Assembly: GCF_001642725.1 (NCBI RefSeq)
Contig: NZ_LSUQ01000022.1
Coordinates: 1 to 41,736, forward strand
Reading direction: 5' to 3'
Origin: Ferroacidibacillus organovorans
GTDB lineage: Bacteria > Bacillota > Bacilli > Alicyclobacillales > SLC66
DNA: 41,736 nucleotides
The notes under the pieces were generated by a model. The model searched no databases and was not told the origin of the DNA. It was given only the letters and a program-made list of their open reading frames with translations. Below are positions 7,992 to 28,434 of the stretch, in pieces. Each line of letters begins with the position of its first letter. Positions within the stretch are counted from its first letter, which is position 1. A program made the position numbers and the translations under genes.

Positions 7992-8018
7992 GACAAAGCA
8001 CCATGTGTATGAAAAAAA

Positions 8019-9643: not shown

Positions 9644-9661
9644 TAATTAGGGGGTGTGCTT

Positions 9662-9802: not shown

Positions 9803-9870
9803 CCTTCTTATGTAGGACAGGCCACAGTGAGTATGTATGCACGAGTAAACACCCGATATACGCACTGCAA

Positions 9871-11039: not shown

Positions 11040-11244
11040 GCAATACACCCCTTCACTGTTCCAATCTGTTACAGTGCGTTTTGTGACGTAAAGGATCTCA
11101 GCGAGTGCCAGGGAACGTCCATCTTCAATTATTTAAAACAAATCGATGCGAATGACAGCATCAAAGGATTCCATTGACCCATGAATAGGACGGTTTAATT
11201 TATTGTGTCTACGTGCTATTGCATAAATCCTCAAGGGATATTAA

Positions 11245-12261: not shown

Positions 12262-12292
12262 TTGATTTCCCCTCATCAGTAGAATAAGCCCT

Positions 12293-12721: not shown

Positions 12722-12786
12722 AAGCGACCCTCCCTTCCTCAGCAACCAAGCTTCGTTTGTCTCCCGTGAATCAAATCCAAACGATG

Positions 12787-13725: not shown

Positions 13726-13740
13726 CTCTCCTATGATGTT

Positions 13741-14850
13741 CTACAGAATTTCTGACAACCAGGCTTGAGCCTCGCGTGGGTCGATTTCTGTAGATACGGT
13801 TTCTTTTGTCACCAACGTTAGGCTGGACAAGCGAGCGGCAAATTGACATGCCTGTTTGACACTCGCATCGCTGACCATCGCAAAGCAGAAGCCAGCCACG
13901 AATGCGTCACCTGCACCAGTCACATCGACGACGTCGATGCTCTCTGCCGGTATTTTGCCAAAGGTGCCTGCCTCATCCAACCAAGCCACACCATCCCTGC
14001 CCATAGTTGCGACAACGGTCCGACACCCCCTATCTTTCAGTGCGACACATGCGGCGCGAACGCTATCCTCTTTATCGACAGGGATACCTGAAATTGCCTC
14101 CATTTCATCTCGATTGGCGATCAGCGTATGAATCCCGGTAAGGTCTCTTGGCAAGCGCTTGGCTTTGGGACTTGATACCGGAGCAACAATCAGTAAAGTG
14201 CCAGCCCTTGCCGACTCGGTAATGACAAAGGCAAGCGCTTCTGCCGGCAAGTTCGTGTCGACGATCGCAATCGTAGCTTGTTGCAGCACCCGCGATCTCG
14301 GTGTCAACTGCTCGACGGTTAAGTCGTCGTAAATTTCCATATCGGCGAGCGCAACAGTCATACTCCCGTCGACGTCGAGCACCGCAGTGTATGTTCCTGT
14401 GCGGTGTGCAGTCGATCGGATGATCTGGCTGACATCTGTACCAAGGCCCTCAAGGTGCGCGAGTATCATTTCGGCTTCTTTGTCGTTGCCGACCATGGTG
14501 ACAAGCGACGTGGGTAATCCGAGGCGTGTCATATTTTCGGCAATATTTCTTGCAACGCCACCAAATGACTCTACAACAAAAGAGGGGTTCGACGTGCCTA
14601 GCTGGATTGGTTCATACGCTTGAATTTTTCGATCTACATTCGCACCGCCGATGCACAAAATACGCCCTCGCTGTGGCAAAACGTAGGCCCGACCGAGAAT
14701 CTCCCCCTCTTTGATGAGCGCAGAGATATAAGCTGCTACCGCAGGTCTGGATGCATTCATTCGTTCAGCCAAATCTCGTTGGGAGATAAACGGGTTTTCA
14801 CGGATACAATGTAGAACTTCCTGTTTCTTGCTCCGACCCGACTCAGCCAC
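13741..14850 (-). CDS. psuK: HTH-PfkB kinase, pseudouridine kinase-like
   Basis: N-terminal HTH (NPFISQRDLAERM), GGVARNIA and DVTGAGDAF motifs; adjacent to psuG. Confidence 0.85.
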   Translation of the reverse strand: MAESGRSKKQEVLHCIRENPFISQRDLAERMNASRPAVAAYISALIKEGEILGRAYVLPQRGRILCIGGANVDRKIQAYEPIQLGTSNPSFVVESFGGVARNIAENMTRLGLPTSLVTMVGNDKEAEMILAHLEGLGTDVSQIIRSTAHRTGTYTAVLDVDGSMTVALADMEIYDDLTVEQLTPRSRVLQQATIAIVDTNLPAEALAFVITESARAGTLLIVAPVSSPKAKRLPRDLTGIHTLIANRDEMEAISGIPVDKEDSVRAACVALKDRGCRTVVATMGRDGVAWLDEAGTFGKIPAESIDVVDVTGAGDAFVAGFCFAMVSDASVKQACQFAARLSSLTLVTKETVSTEIDPREAQAWLSEIL

Positions 14851-14862
14851 ATCGTCACTCCT

Positions 14863-14909
14863 TATAACACATGTTATATTAGGTTAAACAATTGTTTGTT
14901 AGCAGTCAA
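14863..14909 (-). promoter_or_regulatory. psuKG promoter with two AACA-NN-TGTT palindromes
   Basis: Minus-strand TTGACT-17-TAACCT; palindromes at 14866-14875 and 14887-14896. Confidence 0.55.
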
Positions 14910-14973
14910 TCTACGATAGAAATTGCCGCATCGGTGATTTTACATCAATCTGAAATTTTCATATACCTGGTGT

Positions 14974-15620
14974 TTTGGTAAAGCGTACCACCGTATGAAG
15001 ATGGACTATGATTTGGGATTGAGCCGCATCTATGAACTGGTGATTAATTCGAATCCGTGCTACGCATTTCTGCTCGACAGCAATTCTCTCGTGCAAAATA
15101 AATTGGTGAGCGCCCACGTTCTCGCACACTGTGACTTTTTTAAAAACAACATGATGTTTCACCGCACCTCGCGAAATGTCGTTGAAAGTATGGCGGCGAG
15201 CGCGGAACGCTTTCGTACCTATGAGCTGCAATACGGAAAAGATGAGGTGGAAGCATTTCTGGATGCGGCGCTCGCGCTACAGGAACACATCGACCCATCA
15301 GAGCGCGCATTTCGTCATCCGCATACGAAACCGGATTTGCGCGAGGAGCAAGAGCAGTCACCTCGGGTCGGAAAATATGATGATTTATTTGCGCTGGATG
15401 GTCGTTTATCCGATCGTGCGAAGGTGGATGAAAAGAAGGCGGAAAATCGCAAAGCAAAGGGGTTCGCAAAAGACGCACCGCAAAAGGATTTGTTGCTATT
15501 TTTGCAATCGCACAGCAAGATTCTCGCGGAGTGGCAGCGCGACATGCTGACGGTGATTCGCGAGGAGATGCTCTACTTTTGGCCGCAGATTGAGACAAAA
15601 ATCATGAACGAAGGCTGGGC
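14974..15620 (+). CDS. spoVR: SpoVR segment 2 (middle)
   Basis: [38 protein letters not shown]...[16 protein letters not shown]. Confidence 0.95.
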
Positions 15621-15755
15621 TTCGGATTGCAAAAATGGTTTTTTTCATAGCGTACGAAAGATCCAAATGACACGAGTGATTCCGAAGGATTCTAGAATCC
15701 CCAACAAGGAGGCAACGCAAGAGCCCCCTTGTTTACGTAAACTTCAAGGGAGTTT

Positions 15756-16247
15756 TTATTCAGCCACGTCTGTGCGAACGAAAAACGCTGGCGGTTCTTT
15801 GCCCAAGAGTCGGAGGTAGACATAGCCTTGTCCGCGGTGATGAATCTCATTCTCGAGAGCGTAAGTAAGCCAACTCATCGCCGTGCCGTCAGGTCCACCC
15901 CAAAATGGCTCCGATCGCATGATTGTAAGCGATTCCATAGAAATCGATGGCCAAAGCTTGCGCGTTTGTTCGCGAACGTGTTGTCCATAGGCGAGCGCTT
16001 CTTGGATTGGAGCAGTCCGCAGCTCGTCTGGGATCCCTTCCCACTTCCATTGATCAAGCGCCAAACCCCTCAGATAGGCGTTTTCAATGCCCCAAATCTC
16101 AAAGAGCATCTCGCGAAACGGTCGCATGCCATTTACGGGCTGCTTGTCCATCGCTTCTGCGGCGTCCAAGTCGCGCGCAACAAAATTCGTGAGCCGCCGA
16201 TTCTCTTCCCACACATCCAAAAACCAAGATTTCCAGTCGAATTCCAA
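15756..16247 (-). CDS. DinB-family protein
   Basis: MRPFREM and [17 protein letters not shown] motifs; AAAGGAG RBS before TTG 16247. Confidence 0.85.
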
Positions 16248-16318
16248 GATGAACACTCCTTTTGAAGAATCCATGGCGTACGTTTGTACGATAGCACACG
16301 TGACATGCCAAAAACATC

Positions 16319-16549
16319 CTATTTTTCCGGTTCCCCATCAAAGAATGTAATCTGTGCCGCGCGCGCGATGTCTTCGTTTGTTTCTTGTTCAATCCATGTG
16401 CGCAAGGCCGCTTCGCGGACAGATTTGCACCACGTGGTGAGTTGTTGCTCTAGATGTGTCCTCACGGTTAAATCCGGGATTTCAGCGAGTTGTGTAAACG
16501 ATTGTTCGACATCGCCTATCTTAATCGAAAATCTGACGCGAACGGCCAT
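16319..16549 (-). CDS. 76-aa protein divergent from LSR4; candidate directionality factor
   Basis: GAGG RBS; position relative to LSR4 mirrors element 3. Confidence 0.55.
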   Translation of the reverse strand: MAVRVRFSIKIGDVEQSFTQLAEIPDLTVRTHLEQQLTTWCKSVREAALRTWIEQETNEDIARAAQITFFDGEPEK

Positions 16550-16788
16550 CTTTCCTCACCCCATGTTCATGGATATGAGTGGAGAATCGCGGGACAGCCC
16601 TGTGCAATTTGCTTTGTGATCTATGGTGATATTGCACACCTTCGTCTGAAACGCCACATTGACCAATTTGGGATTGAAATCTACCGTAGAGAGTAGCTGA
16701 ACAGAGACAGGACCTAGAATGCGCCACCCACTCATAGGCATAGAGAAGACGTGATTCGAATGCCTTGGTGAGGTGAGCGGAATCGGCG

Positions 16789-18309
16789 ATGCGTGAAAAT
16801 GCAGCGAAAAAGATTGCGATTTACTGTCGCGTATCCACGGATGAGCAGGCAAAAGAAGGCGTGTCGCTCGATGAGCAAAAGGCGAGGCTTCACGCGTACT
16901 GTCGCGCGATGGGTTGGGCGACAGAAGCTGTAGAGTATATTGATGACGGCTATTCGGCGAAAAATATGGAGCGTCCGGCGCTTGAACGCTTGTTGCGACA
17001 TGTGAAGGCAGGGCGCGTTGAGCGGCTCATGGTGACAAAACTCGATCGATTGAGTCGGCGTTTGCTTGATTTGTTGACGCTGATCGAACTGTTTCAAAAC
17101 CACGACGTTTCATTCGTATCGACAAGCGAATCCTTTGATACAGCGACGCCTTCCGGTCGCTTGACACTGCAGGTGCTCGGAGCTGTCGCGGAGTTTGAGC
17201 GTGAGCGCATACGTGAGCGCGTTTTTGACAACATGCTGCATGCAGCAAAAATGGGGAAATGGTTGACACAAGCTCCATACGGCTATCGGCTCGACGCGAA
17301 AAAGTTGGTTATTTGTGAAATGGAGGCGCTTCTTGTTCAGCGCGTCTTTCGCATGTTTGTCGAAGATGGTTTGGGATACTTTCAAATTGCAAAGAAATTG
17401 AATCAGGAACACATCCCTTCTCGCAATGGGAAGGCGTGGTCGATTCGGAGTGTCAAAATCATGCTGAGTAATCCTGCCTATGCGGGAACGCTTGTGTGGA
17501 ATCGCGTTGATTCGAGTCAAAAGCGTCGAGTGCTTAAAGAAGAAGACGCGTGGGTCGAGATGCGCGACGCTCACCCAGCGATTGTTGAACAGGCGCTGTG
17601 GCATCAGGCGCAGCAGCGCATCGCGAGCCATCCGCGAATGCCGCCGCGCGCGCAAGCCAGCCCTCATCTGCTGGGTGGCTATTTGCGTTGTGGAGAATGC
17701 GGCGCGGCGATGTCGATCGGTTGGTCTGGAAATCCGCGGCGAACGCGCGTCTATCGCTGTTCTGCGTATCGAAATCAGGGGCTTTGTCAGAGTAAGCCGT
17801 ATCGTGCAGACGATGTGGAGCGGTGGTTTGTGGAGGCGCTTGAATGCGTGGTGGAGCCTGTGAATCATGCGCGGCACACCGCTTTGGTTCAGCGTGTGCG
17901 GGCGGAGCAGATCGCCAAATTGGATCAGAGGATGCACGCCGCGAAAATGCGCTATGACAGACAGGTAGAAGCGTATACGGCGGGACTCATCGAGATGGAT
18001 ACCCTTGCGCGTGAAAAGGTGGCGCTGAAGCGATGTGTCGCAGAGTACGCAAAGGAGATGTCGACGACGGATTCATCTTCACATGATAAGGAGCTGGAGG
18101 AACGCCTGCGCGGACGGGCGGTTACGCTCGGCGATGCGCTAACCGTGCTTCCGGCTGACTGGATCAAAGCGAAACTGCGCACATGGATTCACAGCGTCAT
18201 TCTTCACGGACGTGAGGATCTTGAGATTGTGTTGTGTCCTGATCTGACGATGGTTTCTGATGCAATGGATCAATCCATTGGAGGATTTTTAGAGTATGGT
18301 GTCGAATGA
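16789..18309 (+). CDS. Large serine recombinase LSR4
   Basis: YCRVST, KLDRLSR, VAEFER, APYGY, CGEC...C. Confidence 0.95.
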   Translation: MRENAAKKIAIYCRVSTDEQAKEGVSLDEQKARLHAYCRAMGWATEAVEYIDDGYSAKNMERPALERLLRHVKAGRVERLMVTKLDRLSRRLLDLLTLIELFQNHDVSFVSTSESFDTATPSGRLTLQVLGAVAEFERERIRERVFDNMLHAAKMGKWLTQAPYGYRLDAKKLVICEMEALLVQRVFRMFVEDGLGYFQIAKKLNQEHIPSRNGKAWSIRSVKIMLSNPAYAGTLVWNRVDSSQKRRVLKEEDAWVEMRDAHPAIVEQALWHQAQQRIASHPRMPPRAQASPHLLGGYLRCGECGAAMSIGWSGNPRRTRVYRCSAYRNQGLCQSKPYRADDVERWFVEALECVVEPVNHARHTALVQRVRAEQIAKLDQRMHAAKMRYDRQVEAYTAGLIEMDTLAREKVALKRCVAEYAKEMSTTDSSSHDKELEERLRGRAVTLGDALTVLPADWIKAKLRTWIHSVILHGREDLEIVLCPDLTMVSDAMDQSIGGFLEYGVE

Positions 18310-18353
18310 ATAAGATTATTGTAGGTTGACGGTTTTTTGTGAGGGATCTAGGG

Positions 18354-19265
18354 ATGGCCAATTCGGTAATTAAAAATTACTCGGACGACATTCGAACTGA
18401 GATTTATCGAGTGACGAATGAGCTACTGGAGCACCTGCACCTGTATTATCAGCCATTTCCTGAATTTGATGCTGTCCGATTTCCGGCAACGGCGCTGACG
18501 ACCGCGACGGAAGGCTTTTTTTTACCGATGATGCTACTAAAAAAGATGGTTGTTATTCCTGTGTGGATTTTTACGATTGATGACGTGATTGATCGTAAAT
18601 TGTTGTCGGATGAAGAATTGGATGCTCGACTGAAAAGTTATGAATGGATCATCACGCAGGGGCTGGATGCGTCTGACGTGTATGGTCGCGTGTTGAAGGA
18701 TCTTTATGACCAGCTAAAAGAGAGGCCGCTTTTTCACGCGTTGCGAGAAGTGTGGGAAGAAGCCTATTTTCGAATGATCCGTGGGATGCTTCTTGAAGCG
18801 CGTGAAACCGTTCGAGTCCCATCGTATGATGAATATCTCGAACACGGATCGTACAGCATTGGCGTTCCGCTCTATGTCGTTTCGACGTGGATTCTCGGTT
18901 CTTATGAAGAAACATTAACGCATCTAGAAGTCCTAAAAAAGCTGATGATGCTGTCGGCGAAAAGCATTCGGCTTGCCAACGACATGCGTACATACGAAAA
19001 AGAGAAAATGGAAAAGAACCTAAACGCGCTTGTGATCATGGAGAATACGTACGAGTCAGAAGGCTACGCGCCTGACGCGGCGAAAGCGTTGGCGTCTGCA
19101 TTTGTACGGGAAGAGTTGGAGCGCTATCGCACGCAGTTTCTTGAATTGGTTGATGAATCGGTACTGCCAATCAGAACGCTGTCAAACGTTACTCAGTTTT
19201 CGCTGTCGTTTTATGATGAGCATGATTTTCATACCGTTGATGCGGGGGAGATCCACCATGTTTGA
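18354..19265 (+). CDS. Class I terpene synthase
   Basis: DDVID (DDxxD) and NDMRTYEKE (NSE/DTE) motifs, YDEYL; start could be GTG 18339. Confidence 0.85.
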   Translation: MANSVIKNYSDDIRTEIYRVTNELLEHLHLYYQPFPEFDAVRFPATALTTATEGFFLPMMLLKKMVVIPVWIFTIDDVIDRKLLSDEELDARLKSYEWIITQGLDASDVYGRVLKDLYDQLKERPLFHALREVWEEAYFRMIRGMLLEARETVRVPSYDEYLEHGSYSIGVPLYVVSTWILGSYEETLTHLEVLKKLMMLSAKSIRLANDMRTYEKEKMEKNLNALVIMENTYESEGYAPDAAKALASAFVREELERYRTQFLELVDESVLPIRTLSNVTQFSLSFYDEHDFHTVDAGEIHHV

Positions 19266-20763
19266 AAACGCGGGTGAAGACGATGCTTCAAAAACGGATG
19301 TGAAGCGCAGAGCGCGTGACTTGGTCGAGCGATTGCAGGGCGGCGCGATGGGATCGATCGCTTATGACACTTCGTGGGTGGCGCGCTTAAAAAATCGGGA
19401 TGGTTCTCCGAAATTCCCGACTACGATCGCCTGGCTGCGCGCGCATCAACACGCGGACGGAAGTTTTGGCGCGCGCGATGAAACGTTGCATGACCGGCTG
19501 ATTTCTACGCTCGCGAGCGTTAATGCACTGACGACGTTGCACGATGAAACGGATAGCGAGCGCATCTCTCGCGCACTTGACTATGTGGCGCGAAACGGTG
19601 GTCGTCTGCGCGCGGATGACGCTGAAACGATTGGTTTTGAGTTGCTTTTTCCTTCGCTACTCGAAGAGGCAAAAGGCTATGGATATCGACTGCCTTTTGA
19701 ATCCTTCGGATGGGTTGAAGAACTGGGGAAAAGAAAGTTGAGCGCAGTTCCCGCGTCGTGGATCTACGAAGCGGAGTCTCCACTTATCCACAGCATCGAG
19801 TTTCTCGGAAAAACAGCACAGATTGATCGCATGGCGCAACTCGTTTCGGTCAACGGATCGATCGGAAACTCTCCATCCGCCTCGGCATTTGTCTATGGGC
19901 AAACGGACGACCCCCGACTGGAGGCGTATTTGCGTCAGATTGTAGAGACGTCTGAGGATGGCGGTGTCTGCAATGTTCAACCGTTTGAAATTTTCGAAAC
20001 GGCGTGGGTGTACTTCAATCTACAGTTGGCTGGAATCACGGTTGAGGGAATGCAAAAAGGATTGCATGAGATTGAGCTGTCATTCAGGCCGCAGGGTGTC
20101 GGGATTTCCCGCAATGGCCTAATGCCAGACGCGGATGACAGTGCACTCGCCGTCAATGTGCTAGCTCGCGCTGGACGCCGAATGTCACTCCAGTTTTTGG
20201 ATTTTTATCAAGCGGAACGCGGATTTTTATGTTTTCCGTATGAGCGCAACCCTTCGATTTCAACCAATATCCACATCCTTGACGCGCTGCGTGCGTATGA
20301 GCCGCAAGAAGTGGCGCCTCATGTGGATAAGATTCTCACGTTTTTGCGCGAGGCTCAACAGGAAAATGCGTATTGGAAAGATAAATGGCATGCCTCTCCA
20401 TTCTATACAACAGCGCATGCGATTCTGGCGCTGCGAGGATTGACTGAGTCACTGATAAAAACGGCGGTCGATTATTTAATTGAATCGCAACGGCCTGATG
20501 GTTCGTGGGGGATTTTTAGGGGTACGGCGGAAGAAACGGCGTATTGTGTACAGGCGTTGACGCTTGCGCTTCCTTATTCTGCGGATGTGGACAAGCGGCT
20601 TGCACGTGCACTTTCTTTTTTAAGTAGCGAGGGGGCAAAAAAACCTCACTCTGAACTCTGGATTGGGAAGGGGCTCTATGCGCCAACCTATGTGATTGAC
20701 GCTACGATTCTAAGCGCGCGCGCGCTCTACCAGAGATGGAGGTACTCTCATGAAAAAGGATGA
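19258..20763 (+). CDS. Class II diterpene cyclase (copalyl/halimadienyl diphosphate synthase-like)
   Basis: YDTSWVA, QHADGSFG and QRPDGSWG (QW repeats), catalytic DADD, DKWHASPFY, EETAY, LWIGKGLY; GGGGGAG RBS before ATG 19258. Confidence 0.92.
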   Translation: MFENAGEDDASKTDVKRRARDLVERLQGGAMGSIAYDTSWVARLKNRDGSPKFPTTIAWLRAHQHADGSFGARDETLHDRLISTLASVNALTTLHDETDSERISRALDYVARNGGRLRADDAETIGFELLFPSLLEEAKGYGYRLPFESFGWVEELGKRKLSAVPASWIYEAESPLIHSIEFLGKTAQIDRMAQLVSVNGSIGNSPSASAFVYGQTDDPRLEAYLRQIVETSEDGGVCNVQPFEIFETAWVYFNLQLAGITVEGMQKGLHEIELSFRPQGVGISRNGLMPDADDSALAVNVLARAGRRMSLQFLDFYQAERGFLCFPYERNPSISTNIHILDALRAYEPQEVAPHVDKILTFLREAQQENAYWKDKWHASPFYTTAHAILALRGLTESLIKTAVDYLIESQRPDGSWGIFRGTAEETAYCVQALTLALPYSADVDKRLARALSFLSSEGAKKPHSELWIGKGLYAPTYVIDATILSARALYQRWRYSHEKG

Positions 20764-23068
20764 AGAGTTTCAACTCCTGACGAAATCGACACAGTGGGGC
20801 GAGCTTAGCGAGATTGAAAAAGTCGTCATCATGGAAAAACGCATAGTATTTGTGCGCTGGCTCGGCATCGTTTGTGCGGCGGTGACTGTTCCCTTTTTGG
20901 GGTATCAGTGGGCTGCTTTTATGTTTGGAATCATCGGATTTGCTGCGGTCTATAATGTGATTTTTCAATTTTATATCATTGCGAAAAAGAGCGCGTGGCT
21001 TTTGAAACCAGCCATTATCACCATCGGGGATATCATGATGGCGTCTGCCGTCGTGTTTATCACGGGGGGGATTCACTCTGACTTTTTTGTGGTCTATTTC
21101 TTGATTGCAATTCTCTCTGCGATTCGTTTCGGGGGACGCGCGGCTGGTATTTCCACCTTGTTGTCGATCCTGTTTTACTCGCTGGTGATTTTCTTGCGCG
21201 GTCCGGTGCGACCGGTCTACGATTTAGCGAACATTTTATTCAGAATGGGATTTGTCGCGACCACAGGTATTTTTGTGGGGTATGTGGGGGACAAAGCGCG
21301 GCAGGTTGAACTCGATTTGCAACGGGAGTTGGATCAGGCGCATGCCCATTTGAATGAGAGCACGGCACTTCTCAATGCAAACCTTGAACTCGATTCGGTA
21401 TTACAAGTGGCCGTCGCGCAATCGCGGTTACTGATTGACGCGGAATTCGGATTGATCCTCACCAAAGAGAGCGGCCTGTCCTTTTTGCCGCGCGACCTTA
21501 AAGATAATTATGACCGTCCCTATTATTCCGATGTGCGTTCAGAAGCCGTGATGCGTGAGGAGGATGTCGCGTACATTATCGAGTTGTTTCAAGATGTCAC
21601 GCGCTTATCGTCGATTTTTCAAAAGCGGATCTCCGGCGAGTCTTCAGTGGAACTCGTGGAGTGCCACATGAATCCTCAATTGGCGCGTATCCTCACGTTA
21701 AAAGAAAACACCATGTATTATCTCGTATCCGCGCAATTGTTTACTGGAGAGACAGAGATTGGGACGCTTTATTTGCTGAAAACGCACAAGCCTGCCCAAG
21801 AGTTGAGGAAAACCGTTCTAAACGCATTGTCCGTCTTTACGCTCAGAATCTCAGCGGCGATCACGAATTCACTGATGTACACCCAATCGAGAATGCAGGC
21901 TGTTACGGATTCAGTGACTGGTCTCTACAATCATCGTTTTTTGCATGAGTTTCTGAATGATGAGATCAAAAAGGTGGTAGAGCAGCATACCCCCTTGTCG
22001 CTGATTGTATTGGATGTGGATTCATTTAAACAGTTTAATGATATGTACGGCCACTCGATCGGCGACACAGCACTGCGCTCTGTCGCGGATATGATCCGGC
22101 CAGCTATTAAAGATCGGGGGATTGCGGCGCGCTTCGGGGGGGATGAGTTTGTCATTATTCTGCCAGGGATGTCCCATCAAGAAGCGATGACTGTTGCGGA
22201 GTCGATTCGTGCGCGCGCGAAAAATTATAGGCACTTAACAAAAAATCACGCACTCGCGACACTTTCGATCAGTTTGGGCGTAGCTACCGCGCCGCAATCG
22301 GGCGAGACATCACACGCTCTTTTCCACGCCGCCGACCTTGCGCTGTACGATGCAAAGCATGCGGGTAAAAATGTTGTGCGATCGGCAGAATCCACGCGTG
22401 AAGGAGGCGCGTTTCGCGATGAACATCTCACAGCGCTTGGCGAATATCGCTCACTGACAGATTCTGTGGAGGTTATGCAGCGGGATCTTGACGCTGTGAA
22501 TCCGCAGATGGTGGAAACGCTCCTCGCGGCGCTCAAGGCGAAAGACCCAGGCACGTACGAACACTCGAAGAGTGTTTCAGCGTATGCTGAGCGACTCGCG
22601 CGGCGCCTTGGCCTGAGTGATCAAGAAGTGGAGACGATTCGGATAGGATCACTCATTCACGATGTTGGCAAGATTGGAATACCAGATTATGTATTGACAA
22701 AAGCCGCGAAACTCACTAAAGAAGAATACGATATGATTAAAGAACATCCGACGATTGGCGTAGAAATTTTAAAACCACTTCGTCTCTATGAAGGATATCT
22801 TCCCATCGTACGCTATCATCATGAATGGATGAATGGAAAAGGGTACCCTCACCAGCTCAAAGGGAGGGAAATTCCGCTTGAGGCGCGCATTGTTGCGATT
22901 TGTGACGCGTTTGATGCGATGACGTCCAACCGACCCTATAAGGCTGCGATGTCTTATGATAAGGCGCTGCATACGATTGAGGGTTTGGTCAATGAACAGT
23001 TCGATCAGGATGTGTGGGAACAGTTCCGCGAAATGATTCAAGAAGAAATCTCTGTGATTGCAAACTGA
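20750..23068 (+). CDS. Membrane sensor with GGDEF and HD-GYP domains
   Basis: N-terminal TM helices, D.VTGLYNHR, RFGGDEF, HDVGKIG, HHE..NGKGYP. Confidence 0.92.
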   Translation: MKKDEEFQLLTKSTQWGELSEIEKVVIMEKRIVFVRWLGIVCAAVTVPFLGYQWAAFMFGIIGFAAVYNVIFQFYIIAKKSAWLLKPAIITIGDIMMASAVVFITGGIHSDFFVVYFLIAILSAIRFGGRAAGISTLLSILFYSLVIFLRGPVRPVYDLANILFRMGFVATTGIFVGYVGDKARQVELDLQRELDQAHAHLNESTALLNANLELDSVLQVAVAQSRLLIDAEFGLILTKESGLSFLPRDLKDNYDRPYYSDVRSEAVMREEDVAYIIELFQDVTRLSSIFQKRISGESSVELVECHMNPQLARILTLKENTMYYLVSAQLFTGETEIGTLYLLKTHKPAQELRKTVLNALSVFTLRISAAITNSLMYTQSRMQAVTDSVTGLYNHRFLHEFLNDEIKKVVEQHTPLSLIVLDVDSFKQFNDMYGHSIGDTALRSVADMIRPAIKDRGIAARFGGDEFVIILPGMSHQEAMTVAESIRARAKNYRHLTKNHALATLSISLGVATAPQSGETSHALFHAADLALYDAKHAGKNVVRSAESTREGGAFRDEHLTALGEYRSLTDSVEVMQRDLDAVNPQMVETLLAALKAKDPGTYEHSKSVSAYAERLARRLGLSDQEVETIRIGSLIHDVGKIGIPDYVLTKAAKLTKEEYDMIKEHPTIGVEILKPLRLYEGYLPIVRYHHEWMNGKGYPHQLKGREIPLEARIVAICDAFDAMTSNRPYKAAMSYDKALHTIEGLVNEQFDQDVWEQFREMIQEEISVIAN

Positions 23069-23071
23069 AGG

Positions 23072-24184
23072 ATGCGAGGATGGCATAATTTGAAACGTAA
23101 AATGGCCAGAGTACAAATGAGCGAAGATGCAATCATGAAAGAGTTGGACTCCTACATGAAATCTGTGATTGAAAGGGGTTTGGACGGGAAAATTCGCAAT
23201 GTGATTGAGTACCATCTCGGGTGGCGTGACATTGATTTTTCTGAACTGGAGTTTGGGAATATCGGCAAGCGCGGCAGACCAATGATGTGTATTTTGACGA
23301 GTATGCTCTTTGCGTATGATTATAAACGTTCTTTTTCAGTGGCTGCGGCAATCGAGTTTATCCATAGTTTTTCGCTGATTTACGATGACATCCAAGATCG
23401 GGACACCATTCGCCGGGGACGTCCCTCCGTTTGGAGTTTATGGGGGGAGGATGAGGCGATTAATGTGGGGTGTGTGCTGCAAACGATGGTTTATGAGGTG
23501 ATTGCAGATCCTGAGAATGAGAATAAACCTGCGCAACTCTCGTGGTTGATTCAATCTGTCAATCGCACGATGTGGAGAGTATGCAATGGACAACAACTCG
23601 ATTTAGAGCTCACCAAAAGTAGGCATCATGTAACGCAGACTCAGTATTTAGAAGTCATCACCGGAAAAACGGCGGCCTTATTTGAGGCGGCAGCTTATCT
23701 CGGCGCGTTTTGTTCAAACGCTAATGAGCGGGAATTGGCACTTTGTCGCTTGTTTGGAGAGAATGTTGGCCTTGCTTTTCAAATTTTTGATGATGTCGTT
23801 GGAATTTGGGGTAGTCGAGAACAAGGACTGGACAAGCCCAACCTCGATCTAGAGCATCGAAAAAAAACGTATCCGATCATCCATGCGCACGAGAATTGTC
23901 AAACGGACGCCGATCGGCTGATCCTCCATCGCTACTATGAGAAGGAAGAACTCAGTGAGCGCGATTTGATCAACATCACGGAACTGCTGAACCGCTGTGA
24001 TTCGCGATCGAAGAGCCTTGAAATCGGATATCAGTATCTCAAAATTGCAATGCAAGCACTTGATGACATAGCAGGGAATGAAGCGATCAAGACGCGTATT
24101 CGCATTTGGGTTAATTACGTTATCGACAAACAGCTTTCTACATTACAAGGTTACATTAAACTTGATGACGAGCTTGTAAAATAA
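23072..24184 (+). CDS. Polyprenyl synthase, likely GGPP synthase
   Basis: GKRGRP, FSLIYDDIQD..RRGRP (aromatic residue at -5 of FARM), GQQLD, KTAALF, FQIFDD; exact start uncertain. Confidence 0.9.
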   Translation: MRGWHNLKRKMARVQMSEDAIMKELDSYMKSVIERGLDGKIRNVIEYHLGWRDIDFSELEFGNIGKRGRPMMCILTSMLFAYDYKRSFSVAAAIEFIHSFSLIYDDIQDRDTIRRGRPSVWSLWGEDEAINVGCVLQTMVYEVIADPENENKPAQLSWLIQSVNRTMWRVCNGQQLDLELTKSRHHVTQTQYLEVITGKTAALFEAAAYLGAFCSNANERELALCRLFGENVGLAFQIFDDVVGIWGSREQGLDKPNLDLEHRKKTYPIIHAHENCQTDADRLILHRYYEKEELSERDLINITELLNRCDSRSKSLEIGYQYLKIAMQALDDIAGNEAIKTRIRIWVNYVIDKQLSTLQGYIKLDDELVK

Positions 24185-24231
24185 AGATGTCGGCATGGAT
24201 CGATTTGTATCGCATAGATTTTTTATAAGTG

Positions 24232-24305
24232 TTGTCATTTTTAAATTGACCGTGCTAGAATAAGCATAACGATTTAGCATAACGATATACTAAATCGTTA
24301 TGCTT
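24232..24305 (+). promoter_or_regulatory. sigmaA promoter and LacI-type operator array
   Basis: TTGTCA-18-TGnTAGAAT; perfect 16-bp inverted repeat at 24262-24277/24290-24305 with a third GCATAACGAT copy between. Confidence 0.75.
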
Positions 24306-24337
24306 GATTTGAACAAAATGATGAATGGAGGGTCGTC

Positions 24338-25627
24338 ATGAAACAAAGAATTGGAAATGTTCGGTGGGGTATTGCTTTTCTCATCGGTGTTGGAATTGTC
24401 ATTAACTATTTTGACCGAACCAATTTGTCCGTGGCTACAAAACCGCTGATGCAAGAGTATCATTTGTCCAGTGCCCAGTTTGGATGGGTACTCTCATCAT
24501 TCGCGTGGTCGTATGCTATCCTTCAAATTCCCGTAGGCGCTTTACTCGATAAGATTGGTGTCAAATGGTTGGTACGGGTAGGGACAATCATCTGGTCGCT
24601 CGCCACATTTATGACCGCGGCAGTCGGTGGAATGGGTCTAATCATTTTATCCCGCGTCTTATTGGGTGTGGCAGAGGCGCCTGCATTTCCAGGAGCGGCG
24701 AAAGCGACGGGATACTGGTTCCCACTTCGTGAGAGAGGTCTCGCGACTTCGGCGTTTGATGCGGCAGCCAAACTTTCAAATGTGATTGGGGTGCCGCTGG
24801 TGGCACTGTCTGTCACACAATGGGGATGGCGCGGCGGCTTTTACATGACAGCTATTTTGAGTCTTATGTATGCGGTTGCATACTGGATTTGGTACCGTGA
24901 CCCGTCGGAGTCCAAAACGCTAACCGATGCAGAACGTGCTTATATTGTAGAAGGCGGGGCTCAAGAGAGCGGAGAAGCACCGGGGGGCGTTGGAAAAAAT
25001 TTAGGATATCTTCTAGGACGTCGTAAGGTGTGGGGATTGACTCTCGGGTTTGCGGCATATGGATATACATTTTATTTGTTGCTTACATGGTTGCCCGGGT
25101 ACCTTGAAACGGAGATGCATATGACCGTTCTAAAATCAGGCATGTACACGATTGTCCCTTGGATCTTTGCGACCATTGCTGATATTGTTATTGGTGGGTG
25201 GTTGGTTGACTTTTTGATAAAGCGCGGAAAAAATCCCACTCGCGTGCGAAAAACGTTGCTTATTGTCGGAATGGTTTTGGGACTCGCGGTCGCTGGGGCA
25301 GGTTTTACGAAAAATCCGCAGATCGCAATCGTCTTCATCACCATTGCACTGAGTGGTCTCGCGTTTTCAGCGCCGATTGGCTGGAGCATTCCTGCGCTCA
25401 TCGCGCCAAAAGGAACGGTTGGTTTAGTGGGAAGCATCATGAACTTTTTTAACAACTTGATGGGGATTTTGGCGCCGATTATCACAGGGTATATTGCAGG
25501 CGGTACAGGCTCATTTGGACTGGGATTTTTAATCGCGGGGATCGTACTGCTGATTGGAATCCTCTGTTACCTCTTTTTACTCGGTGATTTGGAGCCGATC
25601 CAGTCACCTTACAAAGCAAACGTCTAA
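24338..25627 (+). CDS. MFS transporter, anion:cation symporter (sugar-acid) type
   Basis: INYFDRTNLSVA and WFP.RERG motifs; about 12 TM segments. Confidence 0.9.
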   Translation: MKQRIGNVRWGIAFLIGVGIVINYFDRTNLSVATKPLMQEYHLSSAQFGWVLSSFAWSYAILQIPVGALLDKIGVKWLVRVGTIIWSLATFMTAAVGGMGLIILSRVLLGVAEAPAFPGAAKATGYWFPLRERGLATSAFDAAAKLSNVIGVPLVALSVTQWGWRGGFYMTAILSLMYAVAYWIWYRDPSESKTLTDAERAYIVEGGAQESGEAPGGVGKNLGYLLGRRKVWGLTLGFAAYGYTFYLLLTWLPGYLETEMHMTVLKSGMYTIVPWIFATIADIVIGGWLVDFLIKRGKNPTRVRKTLLIVGMVLGLAVAGAGFTKNPQIAIVFITIALSGLAFSAPIGWSIPALIAPKGTVGLVGSIMNFFNNLMGILAPIITGYIAGGTGSFGLGFLIAGIVLLIGILCYLFLLGDLEPIQSPYKANV

Positions 25628-25654
25628 GAAAATGCTGAATGAAAAAATGGGAAT

Positions 25655-25686
25655 ACAAATACGCCGGGGTGTCCCGGCGTATTTGT
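25655..25686. terminator. Intergenic stem-loop
   Basis: Perfect 14-bp stem ACAAATACGCCGGG/CCCGGCGTATTTGT. Confidence 0.6.
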
Positions 25687-25714
25687 GCGAAATAACCTGA
25701 GGTGTAAACGCGAT

Positions 25715-27196
25715 ATGGATGATAAATTTTGTGTTATCGGGTTGGATTTAGGGACAACTTCGGTCAAGACACTCACGGTGGACCAAACGGGTGTGACGCG
25801 GTTTCGAGCAGCGCGGAAAATCTCGACGAACATTGGTCCGAATGGACGCGCAGTGCAAGATCCGTTTGAGATCCGTGACGCGCTGAATTCGGTGTTCGAA
25901 TTGGCGCTTCACGCTGCGAGAAAGGATGGTCTTTTGGTGCATCGGGTTGGATTCAGCGCTGCGATGCACAGTCTGATGATTGTATCTGAAGAGGGGGAAC
26001 CGCTGACACAGGCGATGACCTGGATGGATTCGCGCGCCAAAAAACAGGCGGAATTGCTGTGGGAGTCGCTGAATGGGAAAAAAATTTATGAAGAGACGGG
26101 TACGCCCATTCACGCGATGTCTCCATTTGTAAAGTTAGTATGGCTACGAGAAACGCAACCGCAATTATTGAAAATGGGCAATCGAATCGCTTCTGTAAAA
26201 GAGTGGATCTGGCATGCGTGGTTCGACGAGTGGATGATCGATGAATCGATGGCGGGGGCGACCGGACTCTACGATGTGGAGAAACGCAGTTGGCACGAGC
26301 ATGCGCTCACTCGCATTGGTGTCAACCCGGCACAACTCTCTCGCATCGTTCCTACGTCGTATCGACAGGCTGGTTGTCGTGAGACGAGGCTGCAGTTGGC
26401 AGGGTTGACTGCGGACACTCTGTTTTCGATTGGCAGCACAGATGGAGTTCTTGCGAATTTGGCGCTTGGTGTGACCGATTCGTCAAAAATGGTATTCACG
26501 GTCGGGACAAGTATGGCTGTGCGTTCAGGGGCAAAGAGAAAAGTCACCAATCCTAGCCTTCGTCCATTCTGCTATCGATTAGATGATCAACGTTTTGTCA
26601 TCGGGGCTCCGAGCAATAGCGGAGGTGTGATCCTAGAATGGCTGATGAACATGTTATACGGCGATGATCGCGCGGAAAATGTAGATGAAACGCTGGCCGT
26701 CCTCATTCGTGACGCGGGAAACGTAGAGCTTCAAAGCCTCTACTGCTTGCCTTATGCGGCGGGAGAGCGGGCGCCGCTCTGGGATGAGGAGGCAAAGGCG
26801 TCGTTTATTGGGCTTCATCTTAAACATCAAAAGATTCACTTGGTGAGAGCGGCAATTGAGGGGATGATTTATAACGCCAAGTGGTTGATTGACAACTTGT
26901 CTGCGAGCACGGGGAACCCAGAGCAGGTGTATCTCTCGGGGAAACTGTTTGATGAACTGTGGATATGTCAATTGTGCGCGAATGTATTCGGAGTTCCTGT
27001 TGTGCGGCAAACGCTTGAGGATGCATCAACGATTGGCGCCATTCTTCTTGCAGCCGATACGGCTGAATTCGCACAGTCACTAAAGCGGTGTGAACGGTCT
27101 GAGAAGATGGACCCCGAAGAAGAAATGGAAGAAGTGCAGCGTCTCCGATTTAAAGAGTATCAGAGACTGTGCCGTCTCCTCTATCCAAGCGCGTAG
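25715..27196 (+). CDS. gntK: Gluconokinase (FGGY family)
   Basis: GLDLGTTSVK, FSAAMHS, TGTPIHAMSP, GERAPLW. Confidence 0.85.
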   Translation: MDDKFCVIGLDLGTTSVKTLTVDQTGVTRFRAARKISTNIGPNGRAVQDPFEIRDALNSVFELALHAARKDGLLVHRVGFSAAMHSLMIVSEEGEPLTQAMTWMDSRAKKQAELLWESLNGKKIYEETGTPIHAMSPFVKLVWLRETQPQLLKMGNRIASVKEWIWHAWFDEWMIDESMAGATGLYDVEKRSWHEHALTRIGVNPAQLSRIVPTSYRQAGCRETRLQLAGLTADTLFSIGSTDGVLANLALGVTDSSKMVFTVGTSMAVRSGAKRKVTNPSLRPFCYRLDDQRFVIGAPSNSGGVILEWLMNMLYGDDRAENVDETLAVLIRDAGNVELQSLYCLPYAAGERAPLWDEEAKASFIGLHLKHQKIHLVRAAIEGMIYNAKWLIDNLSASTGNPEQVYLSGKLFDELWICQLCANVFGVPVVRQTLEDASTIGAILLAADTAEFAQSLKRCERSEKMDPEEEMEEVQRLRFKEYQRLCRLLYPSA

Positions 27197-28199
27197 ATTC
27201 GCTTTTGATCAACTCGGACGGAAGGATCTTGAGATGCGCCTCATCGGGTTGTTCATAGCCATCCTTGAATTGCTGAAGGAGGAGGTTTGCGACCCACGCT
27301 CCCATCTCAGGCACCGGCTGTCGAACGCACGTGAGCGAAGGGGAGATCAGTTTGATCCAATCGGGCTCATCGAATGTGGCCAATCCCAGTTTCTCTGGAG
27401 ACGGCCAATCGATTTGCTGTACGTGAGGATAGATTTCATGGAAAATCAACGCATTGGCTGTATAGAGTGCGATCGGTCTTTTCGAAATGTTTTCCTTTAT
27501 ACGCTCAACGACCGATTGCATGGAGACGTCATCCCCGCGTTTCACGATCTCCACGTGAGGAGTGCGATGATAGCGAGATGAACTGTCGAGATAACCCTGC
27601 AGGCGCTCGCTGCGCGTCGAAATGGCATTTGGGGTTTCTGTCACATAAAATACGTTCTGATATCCTTCTGCGTATAAATGGTTCGTCATTTTCATGGATG
27701 CCTCATAATTGTCCGTCAGTACATTTGTGGCGTGCGGGAGCTTGAATTTGCGATCAACGAGAATGACAGGCACTGATTTTGAGATCGTCTCCAGTTCTGT
27801 GAGATTGTCCCCGTTGGTTTGAATCACAATCGCATCGATTTGTTGACCGAGCAGCGTTTTTAGTACATGTGCTTCACGTTTTGGATCTCCCTCTGTTTCA
27901 CAGACGATGACGTTATACCCCTCAGGGGTAAGCGCATTGGAGAGGGAGCGAATGAGGGACACACAAAAAGGATAGCTCAACTTTACGACGATCACTGCAA
28001 TCATTCGACTGCGATTTCCCTTTAATCCTTGTGCGAGTGCATTCGGGTGATAATCCAGTTCTTCAATCACTTGCTCAATTCGCTTTTTTGTCTCTTGGCT
28101 CATCGCCTCATAGCGCGCGTTTAGAAAACGGGAAATGGTCGTGACAGATACGTTTGCTTCGCGGGCAACGTCCTGAATCGTGATTCGTTTCGCTGTCAT
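27150..28199 (-). CDS. LacI-family regulator
   Basis: TIQDVAREANVSVTTISRFLN...LDYHPN; convergent overlap with gntK. Confidence 0.93.
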   Translation of the reverse strand: MTAKRITIQDVAREANVSVTTISRFLNARYEAMSQETKKRIEQVIEELDYHPNALAQGLKGNRSRMIAVIVVKLSYPFCVSLIRSLSNALTPEGYNVIVCETEGDPKREAHVLKTLLGQQIDAIVIQTNGDNLTELETISKSVPVILVDRKFKLPHATNVLTDNYEASMKMTNHLYAEGYQNVFYVTETPNAISTRSERLQGYLDSSSRYHRTPHVEIVKRGDDVSMQSVVERIKENISKRPIALYTANALIFHEIYPHVQQIDWPSPEKLGLATFDEPDWIKLISPSLTCVRQPVPEMGAWVANLLLQQFKDGYEQPDEAHLKILPSELIKSESTRLDRGDGTVSDTL

Positions 28200-28227
28200 T
28201 TTGTACGCTCCCCAAAATCCATTCGAT

Positions 28228-28255
28228 GTATGTTCATCAAAGTATGTTCATCAAA
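28228..28255 (+). repeat. Tandem 14-bp duplication GTATGTTCATCAAA x2
   Basis: Exact tandem copy upstream of the LacI gene. Confidence 0.8.
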
Positions 28256-28264
28256 TATGACGAA

Positions 28265-28340
28265 GATAGACGGTAACATGGCGCTCCCGCGCCACCGTCT
28301 ACGGGAAAAATAAATCGCTGCGCCGTTATTTCGAGATAGA
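28265..28340 (+). repeat. ~76-bp two-hairpin repeat, copy 2
   Basis: Near-identical to 7376-7450. Confidence 0.85.
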
Positions 28341-28434
28341 CGTGCCTATTCTCGTGTTGCGCTATCTGATTTTACCACGAAGTGAATTTGAATCAGAAGA
28401 AAATCGGATCGATCGCAAAAAAGCATCTTTACGA

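Follow-up and report, generated by a model that had tools for sequence, protein, structure and literature searches.

A diterpene operon with a membrane GGDEF/HD-GYP gene on a spoVR-interrupting element of Ferroacidibacillus organovorans

What is a set of diterpene genes doing inside a sporulation gene? Most known bacterial diterpenes come from actinomycetes, rhizobia and a few Chloroflexota, and what they do for their producers is largely obscure. Here we study such a set in Ferroacidibacillus organovorans (Bacillota; assembly GCF_001642725.1, contig NZ_LSUQ01000022.1, positions 1 to 41,736 of the forward strand); this whole stretch of 41,736 nucleotides is referred to as the window. The host is a culturable, acidophilic spore former from an acid mine. 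Judged from the sequence, we give a probability of roughly 0.6 to one joint reading: the operon in the spoVR element may encode a diterpene pathway coupled to signalling, and the element would be removed in the mother cell.

A sporulation gene split at two sites

In the window spoVR is split twice, at two sites and by two different recombinases; an earlier note on this DNA had missed the second split. The features of the region are:

7825 to 7991, plus strand: first piece of spoVR (Pfam SpoVR positions 3-62), ending in the 8-bp core TTTGGTAA (7984-7991)
7992 to 14981: first intervening element, about 7 kb, with the core TTTGGTAA repeated at 14974-14981
8019 to 9533, minus strand: LSR3, in the first element
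14982 to 15620, plus strand: second piece of spoVR (Pfam positions 53-270), closing with the 14-bp attL core AACGAAGGCTGGGC (15607-15620)
15621 to 28434: second intervening element, about 12.8 kb, with the diterpene operon
15756 to 16274, minus strand: DinB-family gene, truncated in the sister species
16319 to 16549, minus strand: 76-aa ORF divergent from LSR4, a candidate recombination directionality factor
16789 to 18309, plus strand: LSR4, a large serine recombinase (Resolvase, Recombinase and Zn ribbon), intact in both species
24338 to 28199: separate cargo, with MFS (galactonate-transporter-like), FGGY kinase (gluconokinase-like) and LacI-type repressor (minus strand) genes
28435 to 29073, plus strand: attR core (28435-28448) and third piece of spoVR (Pfam positions 260-405 plus SpoVR_C)

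The first element, which also carries ornithine cyclodeaminase-like, APH fragment, GNAT, PsuG-like and PfkB/HTH genes, is not found in the sister species. The second element is present there at the same site, with about 80% nucleotide identity. The core AACGAAGGCTGGGC flanks it as a direct repeat (15607-15620 and 28435-28448), and the insertion point lies between the codons for NEGWA and TYWH. When the left and right flanks are joined, they give the motif of the uninterrupted spoVR of four relatives. The claim that the cluster rides on a spoVR-interrupting element is hereby confirmed at base level, by the 14-bp cores and the restored reading frame, and precise recombination between the two cores would restore spoVR. 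The locus has what defines a sporulation-gene intervening element: a split gene, its own recombinase, a short direct repeat and a restorable frame. In the assembled contigs aligned to the window no excision joint appears; contigs of this kind would not reveal rare excised forms, and the result weighs neither for nor against excision.

Sporulation genes known to be split include sigK (by skin), spsM (SPbeta), spoVFB (vfbin) and, in Geobacillus thermoglucosidasius, spoVR (vrin), and spoVR is in this way a known target, as far as the available text of the two sources goes (PMC4191935, PMC6957869). As described in that text, these elements also split a mother-cell sporulation gene, have their own serine recombinase and restore the coding sequence by precise excision. 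There they appear as prophages or prophage remnants, whereas metabolic or resistance genes are the cargo of the present element and of its relatives; in addition, spoVR here has two insertion sites, used by two different recombinases. A second likeness is to the heterocyst excision elements, such as the fdxN element with XisF, with which the logic of developmental excision in a terminal cell would be shared. In NCBIfam LSR4 is near XisF (2.8e-53) and CcrB (3.5e-65), both under the equivalog cut-offs; host and target gene differ from those of XisF.

Four other genomes, from three genera, have orthologs of LSR4 (46-61% identical) at this spoVR site, and in two genera other than Ferroacidibacillus homologs of the 76-aa ORF adjoin LSR4 orthologs. 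The elements at this site share no cargo; in other genera the cargo is, for instance, arsenic resistance or cytochrome bd/sulfide genes. The element is a cargo-swapping platform common to several genera, a feature that the first reading did not see. In the present element the MFS gene of the separate cargo is preceded by a sigma-70-like site at 24232-24261.

The diterpene operon

Positions 18354-24184 hold a single operon of four overlapping or near-abutting genes, all on the plus strand, in the following order:

18354 to 19265, plus strand: class I terpene synthase (303 aa; DDVID, NDMRTYEKE; PF19086 6.6e-19, PF03936 2.5e-12)
19258 to 20763, plus strand: class II diterpene cyclase (501 aa; D291-A-D293-D294), overlapping the synthase gene by 8 nt
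20750 to 23068, plus strand: putative membrane sensor (772 aa; 6 TM, 6TM_PilS/DUF4118-like, then coiled coil, GAF-like region, GGDEF and HD-GYP)
23072 to 24184, plus strand: GGPP-synthase-like short-chain trans-prenyl diphosphate synthase (PF00348 1.9e-55; FARM DDIQD, SARM DDVVG)

The cyclase and sensor genes overlap by 14 nt, and the gap from the sensor gene to the prenyltransferase gene is 3 nt. The earlier note had described a tightly coupled synthase, cyclase and GGPP synthase. Gene positions and motifs agree with this, but the three are not all adjacent, as the GGDEF/HD-GYP gene (20750-23068) intervenes. This fourth gene had been overlooked, and it is the conserved and most unusual component of the operon.

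In the translated synthase both metal-binding motifs of class I enzymes, DDxxD and NSE/DTE, are present as DDVID and NDMRTYEKE, as had been claimed. Among 21 homologs N209 and D210 of the NSE motif are invariant, while T213 and E217 are nearly invariant. The predicted structure (pLDDT 93.7, pTM 0.91) has an all-helical alpha fold, and the best Foldseek match of this model is Sat1646 (TM 0.77, probability 1.00), which is also nearest by sequence (3.1e-14); tolypothrichol synthase, the biformene synthase LrdC and Stt4548 are among the other best matches. Several of the leading matches use class II products as substrates. The synthase in this respect resembles the actinomycete labdane-related pairs, in which a CPP synthase accompanies the pimaradiene synthases Sat1646 and Stt4548, or LrdC, and the gene order synthase-cyclase-prenyltransferase is that of the actinomycete loci L127 and L141. 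However, synthase identity to these pairs is 21-22%, the sensor gene is missing from the actinomycete synthase-cyclase-prenyltransferase loci (L127, L134 and L141), and the present host belongs to Bacillota.

The cyclase has the DADD motif described before, at residues 291-294. Its homology to solved diterpene cyclases covers the beta-gamma didomain: among solved structures the M. tuberculosis halimadienyl-PP synthase 6VPT (MtHPS, Rv3377c; 1e-68, cyclase residues 25-490) matches best, followed by the ent-CPP synthase 5BP8 (2.9e-45); plant CPP synthases match at 1e-43 to 1e-35, and 17 solved cyclases besides 6VPT match at E <= 0.01. In the alignment D291-A-D293-D294 pairs with D293-C-D295-T296 of 6VPT, and D293, D295, T296, H341 and Y479 bear the same numbers as in the available text on Rv3377c/MtHPS (PMC9585517). 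The likeness to Rv3377c-type cyclases that the earlier note had proposed is real, since 6VPT is the best match and its residue numbers agree with those of MtHPS. Conserved in the cyclase are H341 and W380 of MtHPS (here H339 and W377), I474 and Y479, whereas the motif is DADD instead of DCDT, and Y328 corresponds to F326.

According to the available text of PMC9585517, halimadienyl-diphosphate synthases of the Rv3377c type have a DxDT(T) variant and an environment of Y328 and Y479, the latter a Tyr acting as base, that directs the rearrangement. With DADD and a Phe in place of Y328, the cyclase falls outside this type. The equivalent of Y479 is not diagnostic, since it is also present in 5BP8. 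Further, an Rv3377c/Rv3378c-like system as a whole is ruled out by DxDD (not DxDT) and by the alpha-fold class I partner, and unlike that system the operon also contains prenyltransferase and sensor genes. In fold, the Rv3378c transferase differs from alpha-fold class I synthases. As the identity to MtHPS is low, its product is not transferable, and the product of the cyclase cannot be read from the sequence.

The prenyltransferase had been called a GGPP synthase. The family stands: PF00348 matches at 1.9e-55, among solved structures the GGPP synthase 1WY0 is closest (8.5e-39), and the first Asp-rich motif is DDIQD-x4-RRG and the second DDVVG, whose DDxxG form is common to the prenyltransferases of loci L044, L053 and L058. 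The curated label does not, as the best GGPP-synthase models give 188 bits against 475-500. Since no NCBIfam equivalog cut-off is reached, we can only infer the chain length; one rule reads it from the Phe/Ser before the first Asp-rich motif. Altogether, the idea of an uncharacterised diterpene set of class II enzyme, class I enzyme and prenyltransferase is supported.

The operon is kept in the sister species under purifying selection, with dN/dS of 0.104 for the synthase, 0.115 for the cyclase, 0.054 for the sensor and 0.044 for the prenyltransferase; dS of its genes (0.84-1.34) is comparable to that of flanking chromosomal genes (0.74-1.37). In Bacillota the set is rare. Within the order the cyclase occurs in 2 of 64 genomes, those of F. 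organovorans and its sister species, and in none of the other 62, none of 400 sampled genomes of the class and none of 400 sampled of the phylum.

Could the operon make a lipid for the spore? Sporulenes are spore-associated terpenoids of Bacillus subtilis, and an analogous compound might arise if the operon were transcribed with LSR4 in the mother cell. LSR4 (16789-18309) ends 44 nt before the ATG of the synthase, on the same strand, which bears out the statement that the cluster lies directly downstream of it, and no match to a sigma-70-like promoter or a terminator is found within this gap. Such a site-free gap is at most compatible with co-transcription of LSR4 and the operon. In addition, LSR4 points the same way as the 5' part of spoVR, and a squalene-hopene or sporulenol-type cyclase (E <= 1e-30) is found in 0 of 2 genomes of the genus compared to 19 of 22 in the sister family. 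Nevertheless, we find a sporulation lipid unlikely, as the same module occurs in MAGs of Chloroflexota and Dormiibacterota, phyla that are not known as endospore formers. Further, the timing device of SPbeta is a small directionality factor and not the integrase, according to the available text of PMC6957869, so linkage to LSR4 does not imply sporulation-specific expression.

The membrane protein and its neighbours in other bacteria

The 772-aa protein has the motifs of c-di-GMP enzymes, FGGDEF, HDVGK and HHEWMNGKGYP, and matches PF00990 (9.4e-45), PF13487 (1.1e-38) and TIGR00254 (167 bits, cut-off 37.4). By predicted structure its N-terminal six-TM domain resembles 6TM_PilS clusters (TM-score 0.70-0.76) and is in this like PilS-type 6-TM kinases and KdpD-type DUF4118 proteins. 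The Pfam hits are weak: DUF4118 matches the protein at E 0.0062 (16.7 bits, under the cut-off of 28.4), and in homologs of the protein PF25323 reaches 27.8 bits in L046 (cut-off 27) and PF13493 20.4 bits in L049. The output differs from that of the PilS and KdpD types, being GGDEF and HD-GYP. PilS senses a membrane-resident ligand, pilin.

We retrieved loci with the cyclase as sole query. In metagenomes and in Chloroflexota, Dormiibacterota and Rubrobacter MAGs, the gene after the related cyclase and synthase genes encodes this membrane domain, fused to GGDEF-HD-GYP or to a histidine kinase. By Pfam, 17 loci have a cyclase, a PF19086 synthase and TM-(GAF)-GGDEF-HD-GYP (or its start at a contig end), and L047 is an 18th on tblastn alone. 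Three have TM-HisKA-HATPase in the third place (L035, L115 and L119, by Pfam), with L036 as a fourth on tblastn alone. The output domain is variable while the input domain is constant. In L043, L044, L053 and L058 the sensor gene has the synthase on one side and an FMN_dh-like gene plus the prenyltransferase on the other, and by this position it is embedded in the pathway there too.

The module loci form 8 clusters at 70% cyclase identity and are 40-63% identical between clusters. In a FastTree phylogeny of 169 cyclases, the only one made, a single clade of 44 rows (support 99) includes the F. organovorans cyclase. It contains 13 of 13 loci with a full-length sensor homolog and 6 of 7 with the TM domain only; none of the 13 falls among the other 125 rows. 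Since the loci are related, and some of them near-duplicates, these counts overstate independence. Of the 25 loci in or near the clade that could be assessed, 3 lack the sensor: L038 and L045, which have ketoacyl-synthase genes in its place, and L184, a long branch.

These data bear on whether the GGDEF/HD-GYP gene is just an unrelated passenger. GGDEF genes are common, and at least 13 further GGDEF or HD-GYP matches are found in the host genome. However, the N-terminal region is rare: of 1.84 billion representatives, only 9 are related to it at E <= 1e-30 and 46 at E <= 1e-10. Moreover, full-length homologs that include it follow cyclase-synthase pairs in 6 of the clusters. With its overlap with a neighbour and its low dN/dS as well, we regard a passenger as very unlikely.

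Another way to connect the genes is chemical. The class I enzyme might transfer the diterpenyl group onto a nucleotide that the GGDEF/HD-GYP protein makes or trims, on the model of 1-tuberculosinyladenosine, a terpene-nucleotide conjugate of M. tuberculosis. The operon does include a nucleotide cyclase/phosphodiesterase, and the nearest solved relative of the cyclase is the tuberculosinyl-PP synthase. But in four loci the same TM domain goes with a histidine kinase, which yields no nucleotide product, and the partner here is an ordinary alpha-fold class I synthase, which makes a conjugate extremely improbable.

Direction of the link and its meaning

In the proposed pathway, coupled to signalling, the steps are taken from the enzyme families. 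The prenyltransferase would supply GGPP, the cyclase would protonate it and fold it to a bicyclic diphosphate of the labdane or halimadane type, and the class I enzyme would ionise this to a diterpene hydrocarbon or alcohol, probably located in the membrane. The membrane protein may be assigned to the pathway because at least 8 lineages from several phyla have its 6-TM domain encoded after a cyclase-synthase pair. In the simplest view the TM domain would read the diterpene, or the membrane state that results from it, and pass this on to c-di-GMP turnover. If it behaves like skin, SPbeta and vrin, the element would be excised in the mother cell, giving a working spoVR, while the spore would retain the island.

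The gene neighbourhood reveals a link between sensor and diterpene genes but not its direction. The same data, silent on direction, would also fit a cluster-situated regulator, that is, a sensor that perceives an outside or membrane stimulus and switches diterpene synthesis via c-di-GMP or a phosphorelay. A hybrid response-regulator/kinase gene follows the TM-kinase gene in L035, L115 and L119, as in ordinary regulatory cascades. However, by Pfam the four genes of the operon include neither a c-di-GMP effector nor a DNA-binding regulator, c-di-GMP is diffusible and cell-wide and so poorly suited to address one operon, and the constant part is a membrane-embedded domain, suited to a lipid ligand. 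We consider this direction doubtful.

As to the diterpene as the signal, a stronger version can be put forward tentatively, as a possibility: the diterpene would be an intramembrane signal, the dedicated 6-TM domain always found beside the cyclase-synthase pair would drive c-di-GMP turnover or a phosphorelay, and the cassette would be mobile across phyla, with the Bacillota copy on an island removed at sporulation. If true, the four-gene unit would be a signalling cassette complete in itself, both making a lipid and reporting on it, and this cassette would have moved between Chloroflexota-type bacteria, other phyla and one acidophilic member of Bacillota.

A full-text literature search found no description of a link between a diterpene pathway and signalling genes. 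The conserved link to second-messenger or two-component signalling gives a direct, testable handle on the role of the diterpene. The host, an acidophilic spore former that can be cultured and has no hopanoid-type cyclase, maintains under selection a pathway that is both small and complete. For the acidophile family, recombinase units that target spoVR are not only phage remnants but exchangeable carriers of niche genes, among them the diterpene module, arsenic resistance and cytochrome bd/sulfide genes.

The operon and its enzymes

The region 18354-24184 is filled by four ORFs, all in one direction:

18354-19265, + strand: class I terpene synthase, 303 aa; PF19086 at 6.6e-19, DDVID and NDMRTYEKE
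19258-20763, + strand: class II cyclase, 501 aa; squalene-hopene-cyclase-type repeats, DADD at 291-294
20750-23068, + strand: sensor, 772 aa; GGDEF at 9.4e-45, HD-GYP (HD_5 at 1.1e-38)
23072-24184, + strand: polyprenyl synthase, 370 aa; 1.9e-55

The ORFs overlap by 8 and 14 nt and the final gap is 3 nt, hence this is a single translationally coupled operon. An earlier note had described three tightly coupled genes: all three are present, but a 2.3-kb sensor gene, which it did not mention, separates two of them. The DDxxD and NSE motifs that it assigned to the class I synthase are indeed those of the 303-aa ORF. The operon has no P450 or other tailoring gene, and Rfam gives 0 matches at gathering score in the entire window. 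Scans for promoters (9 sites, 14.3 in shuffles) and terminators (10, against 14.1) return fewer sites than shuffled sequence and have no bearing on co-transcription. By eye, no convincing sigma-E/sigma-K type -10 element was found upstream of LSR4, the large serine recombinase at 16789-18309 (+). Among the sequencing runs listed as containing the stretch, none is an RNA run.

The top solved relative of the cyclase is 6VPT (1e-68, residues 25-490), followed by the ent-CPP synthase 5BP8 (2.9e-45) and plant CPP synthases; the likeness to the Rv3377c type, proposed from the sequence earlier, is thereby borne out. 6VPT is labelled merely "Cyclase" in the PDB table, and we tied it to Rv3377c, the halimadienyl-PP synthase of M. 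tuberculosis (MtHPS), by the alignment numbering, which reproduces D293, D295, T296, H341, W380 and Y479, all described for this enzyme (PMC9585517). The window cyclase keeps H339 and W377, has a canonical DxDD where MtHPS has DxDT, and carries Phe at the position of MtHPS Y328, where a change to Phe lets a labdadienyl product through (PMC9585517). The Tyr matching the MtHPS base Y479 is also kept, and predicts nothing because 5BP8 has the same Tyr. On these grounds we rejected the label halimadienyl-PP synthase and therefore use the name class II diterpene cyclase. As judged from its sequence the enzyme should be such a cyclase, with a product that the sequence does not assign.

The class I enzyme has its closest solved relatives in Sat1646 (3.1e-14) and Stt4548, two pimaradiene synthases with CPP as substrate (PMC9814573), and its AlphaFold model (21 homologs, pLDDT 93.7) has Sat1646, tolypothrichol synthase, LrdC and Stt4548 as first matches. 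For the prenyltransferase the nearest enzyme is the GGPP synthase 1WY0 (8.5e-39), while none of the NCBIfam cut-offs is reached; its DDxxG second motif is common to prenyltransferases of related modules.

The spoVR elements and the distribution of the operon

The spoVR gene is split twice, into three pieces:

7825-8004: first spoVR piece
14965-15627: second spoVR piece
28423-28848: third spoVR piece

The first interruption lies within 7825-15627, near Pfam position 55-62 of spoVR; it is about 7 kb long, has its own recombinase (LSR3) and is bounded by TTTGGTAA at 7984-7991 and 14974-14981; its removal restores the spoVR reading. Its cargo consists of ornithine cyclodeaminase-like, APH fragment, GNAT and pseudouridine glycosidase/kinase-like genes, and it is absent from the sister species. 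LSR3 orthologs (45% identical) lie at the same spoVR site in three genomes (G002, G010, G018), so that a doubly split spoVR occurs in several genomes.

The second interruption, of 12.8 kb, is bounded by AACGAAGGCTGGGC at 15607-15620 and 28435-28448. When its flanks are joined they equal the uninterrupted spoVR sequence of four relatives (L015, L020, L024, L026). With core repeats present and spoVR restored when the flanks are joined, the earlier placing of the cluster on a spoVR-interrupting element stands. The element contains a DinB-family gene, a 76-aa ORF divergent from LSR4, LSR4, the operon and a separate sugar-acid set (MFS, FGGY kinase and LacI genes). A spoVR-splitting element, vrin of Geobacillus thermoglucosidasius, is already on record (PMC4191935).

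The same site is occupied in further genomes from three genera of the family (G012 and G016 of one genus, G002 and G010 of another, G006 of the third), with LSR4 orthologs that are 46-61% identical. None of the window's cargo is common to these LSR4-type elements of other genera. The cargo in G012 is an arsenic-resistance operon (ArsD, two ArsA, ArsR, ArsB and an LMW phosphatase; locus L027), and in G016 a cytochrome bd oxidase, a rhodanese/metallo-beta-lactamase and a pyridine-nucleotide-disulphide oxidoreductase (L028). These two elements are adaptive islands, not prophage remnants. The 76-aa ORF (16319-16549, minus strand) has no Pfam match, and homologs of it directly adjoin LSR4 orthologs, also divergently, in G016 (L028, 2e-12) and G006 (L033, 1e-6). 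Because of this conserved position it is a candidate recombination directionality factor; known excision units combine an integrase with a small factor of this kind (PMC6957869).

A joint left by excision was absent from the assembled contigs of four sequencing runs (X1, X5, X6, X7), which cannot show rare excised forms. The sole joint listed, 22932 to 28262 (side 29), was discarded as it coincides with a short genomic repeat. This 80-nt repeat at 28262-28345, within the element and close to its right end, breaks metagenome contigs and gave the spurious joint; it is without Rfam match and has five more genomic copies (87-92% identical; C22:7376-7450 and contigs C98, C77, C6 and C48). Two mine-drainage contigs of run X7 match the left spoVR part at 90% or more and then continue past 15620 into uninterrupted, different spoVR (...CACCTACTGGCATCAC...); they belong to a related strain or species in which precisely this position, 15620, is unoccupied.

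Two apparent stops in LSR4 of the sister species had suggested a broken gene, a reading that we rejected: the gene there merely ends about 20 codons sooner. The region 16047-16860 takes in the 5' part of DinB, the 76-aa ORF, the sequence upstream of LSR4 and the first 70 nt of that gene. In the comparison with the sister species it reaches 95-99% identity against a background of about 80% (dS about 1); the two species may have exchanged it recently, or it may be a control region under unusual constraint. Elsewhere, two more large serine recombinases, LSR1 and LSR2 (1821-5341), face each other and are shared with the sister species, and by tblastn 11 other contigs have recombinase-like genes; this enzyme family is unusually abundant in the genome.

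The closest named cyclase is 85% identical and also from Ferroacidibacillus organovorans. In the order, 2 of 64 genomes have the cyclase, namely the window's genome and the sister species. Among 400 other sampled genomes each of the class and the phylum it is absent at E <= 1e-25, with the window's own genome as the only match; the common near-identical clusters in Bacillota that the earlier note gave as a refutation did not appear in this sampling. The window's genome has no second PF19086 synthase. Squalene-hopene/sporulenol-type cyclases are absent at E <= 1e-30 from both genomes of the genus, in which no class II terpene cyclase other than the diterpene cyclase was found; at the same threshold 19 of 22 genomes of the sister family have hopene-cyclase matches. 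Spores are formed by all type strains of the family, according to PMC11123200. In the passages found by a term search, PMC11469919 and PMC12009305 name no Bacillota cyclase, although their supplements could list some; titles and abstract starts of the literature naming Ferroacidibacillus contain nothing on terpenes.

Compared with the sister species, the four operon genes have dN/dS values of 0.104, 0.115, 0.054 and 0.044, and their dS (0.84-1.34) is like that of flanking chromosomal genes (0.74-1.37). It follows from these values that the common ancestor of the two species already had the operon and that selection maintains it. The element is also found at 99% identity or more in contigs of three independent metagenome studies (sediment, unspecified and mine drainage).

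The sensor at other cyclase loci

We gathered 170 loci with the cyclase alone, and neighbours matching window proteins were then sought. By tblastn, the first 90 loci gave 20 synthases, 17 sensors and 6 prenyltransferases, and the next 80 gave 14, 8 and 5. Diverged synthases overlooked with the window synthase as query (e.g. L035, L119) were recovered by Pfam. A single-sequence pattern scan of genome contigs returned only 33-37% relatives; alignment-based scans were better, and lacked the 44-51% cyclase relatives known from the protein search.

At twelve loci (L041, L043, L044, L046, L048, L049, L051, L052, L053, L058, L121, L125) the cyclase is followed by a PF19086 synthase and then by a protein of about 800 aa with GGDEF and HD-GYP domains, as assigned by Pfam. 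At L118 such a protein also comes after the cyclase-synthase pair, on the opposite strand; at L039, L040, L054 and L120 the sensor gene is interrupted by the contig end, and L047 was counted on tblastn alone. Where scored, these homologs have weak GAF, DUF4118 or 6TM_PilS matches. At L035, L115 and L119 (and L036 by tblastn) a histidine kinase takes the place of the GGDEF/HD-GYP gene after the synthase; its TM region shares 31-34% identity with residues 25-224 of the window sensor, and a response-regulator/GAF(/PAS)/kinase gene comes next. L038, L045 and L184 have neither version.

Clustering at 70% cyclase identity divides the positive loci into 8 groups, with 40-63% identity between groups, and their named hosts are Thermomicrobiales, Thermobaculum, Chloroflexia, other Chloroflexota, a Dormiibacterota MAG and a Rubrobacter MAG. 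At L043, L044, L053 and L058 the sensor has the synthase on one side and, on the other, an FMN_dh-like gene that may encode a type 2 IPP isomerase, together with the prenyltransferase; flanked by pathway genes, the sensor is therefore inside the pathway, as in the window. Two database proteins (P0028, P0030; 812 and 844 aa) have a HisKA and HATPase core fused ahead of a full class II cyclase with intact DxDD; whether these are genuine fusions or the result of merged gene calls, they add another kinase-cyclase neighbourhood.

A FastTree phylogeny was built from 169 cyclases: those of 154 loci, that of the window and 14 taken from the database. The other 16 of the 170 loci, with a cyclase match below 430 aa or a stop, were left out; three of them, annotated nonetheless (L049, L051, L125), have the sensor. 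The window clade (44 rows, support 99) takes in all 13 loci scored with a full-length homolog of the sensor, and 6 of the 7 loci that have just its TM domain. Outside it, 80 assessable loci have nothing and one has a TM-domain match. The one clue to the context of the relatives missing from the scans is that in four cases homologs of cyclase, synthase and sensor (42-51% identity) have equal "longest contig" values (9843, 17505, 60227, 115116), which is only suggestive of linkage.

For the N-terminal 380 residues of the sensor, a word-indexed search found 15 relatives, and an exhaustive HMMER search of 1.84 billion representatives found 209 at E <= 0.001, 46 at <= 1e-10 and 9 at <= 1e-30. In the predicted structure the TM domain is similar to sensor domains of the 6TM_PilS type. 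Judging by their motifs (FGGDEF; HD ... HHExxNGKGYP), the two catalytic domains look intact, and no RxxD inhibitory site was seen by eye ahead of the GGDEF motif.

The role of the sensor

A membrane input domain that stays constant while its outputs are interchanged, always beside a diterpene cyclase-synthase pair, is what is expected of a sensor tied to the diterpene pathway, and gene order argues that the sensor is part of the diterpene module. We favour the reading that it would perceive the membrane-resident diterpene product. A serious rival has the signal running from the sensor to the pathway, with diterpene synthesis under its control. We argue against a third possibility, that the module makes a terpene-nucleotide conjugate: the histidine kinase variant of the sensor speaks against it. 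Full-text literature searches gave no relevant link between terpenes and c-di-GMP or between terpene cyclases and kinases.

Both the cluster, which is intact and rare in its phylum, and the element intervening in spoVR are real; taken singly, each is a new member of an already known kind. What is new is the conserved coupling of a diterpene pathway to a dedicated membrane sensor, and this coupling is directly testable.
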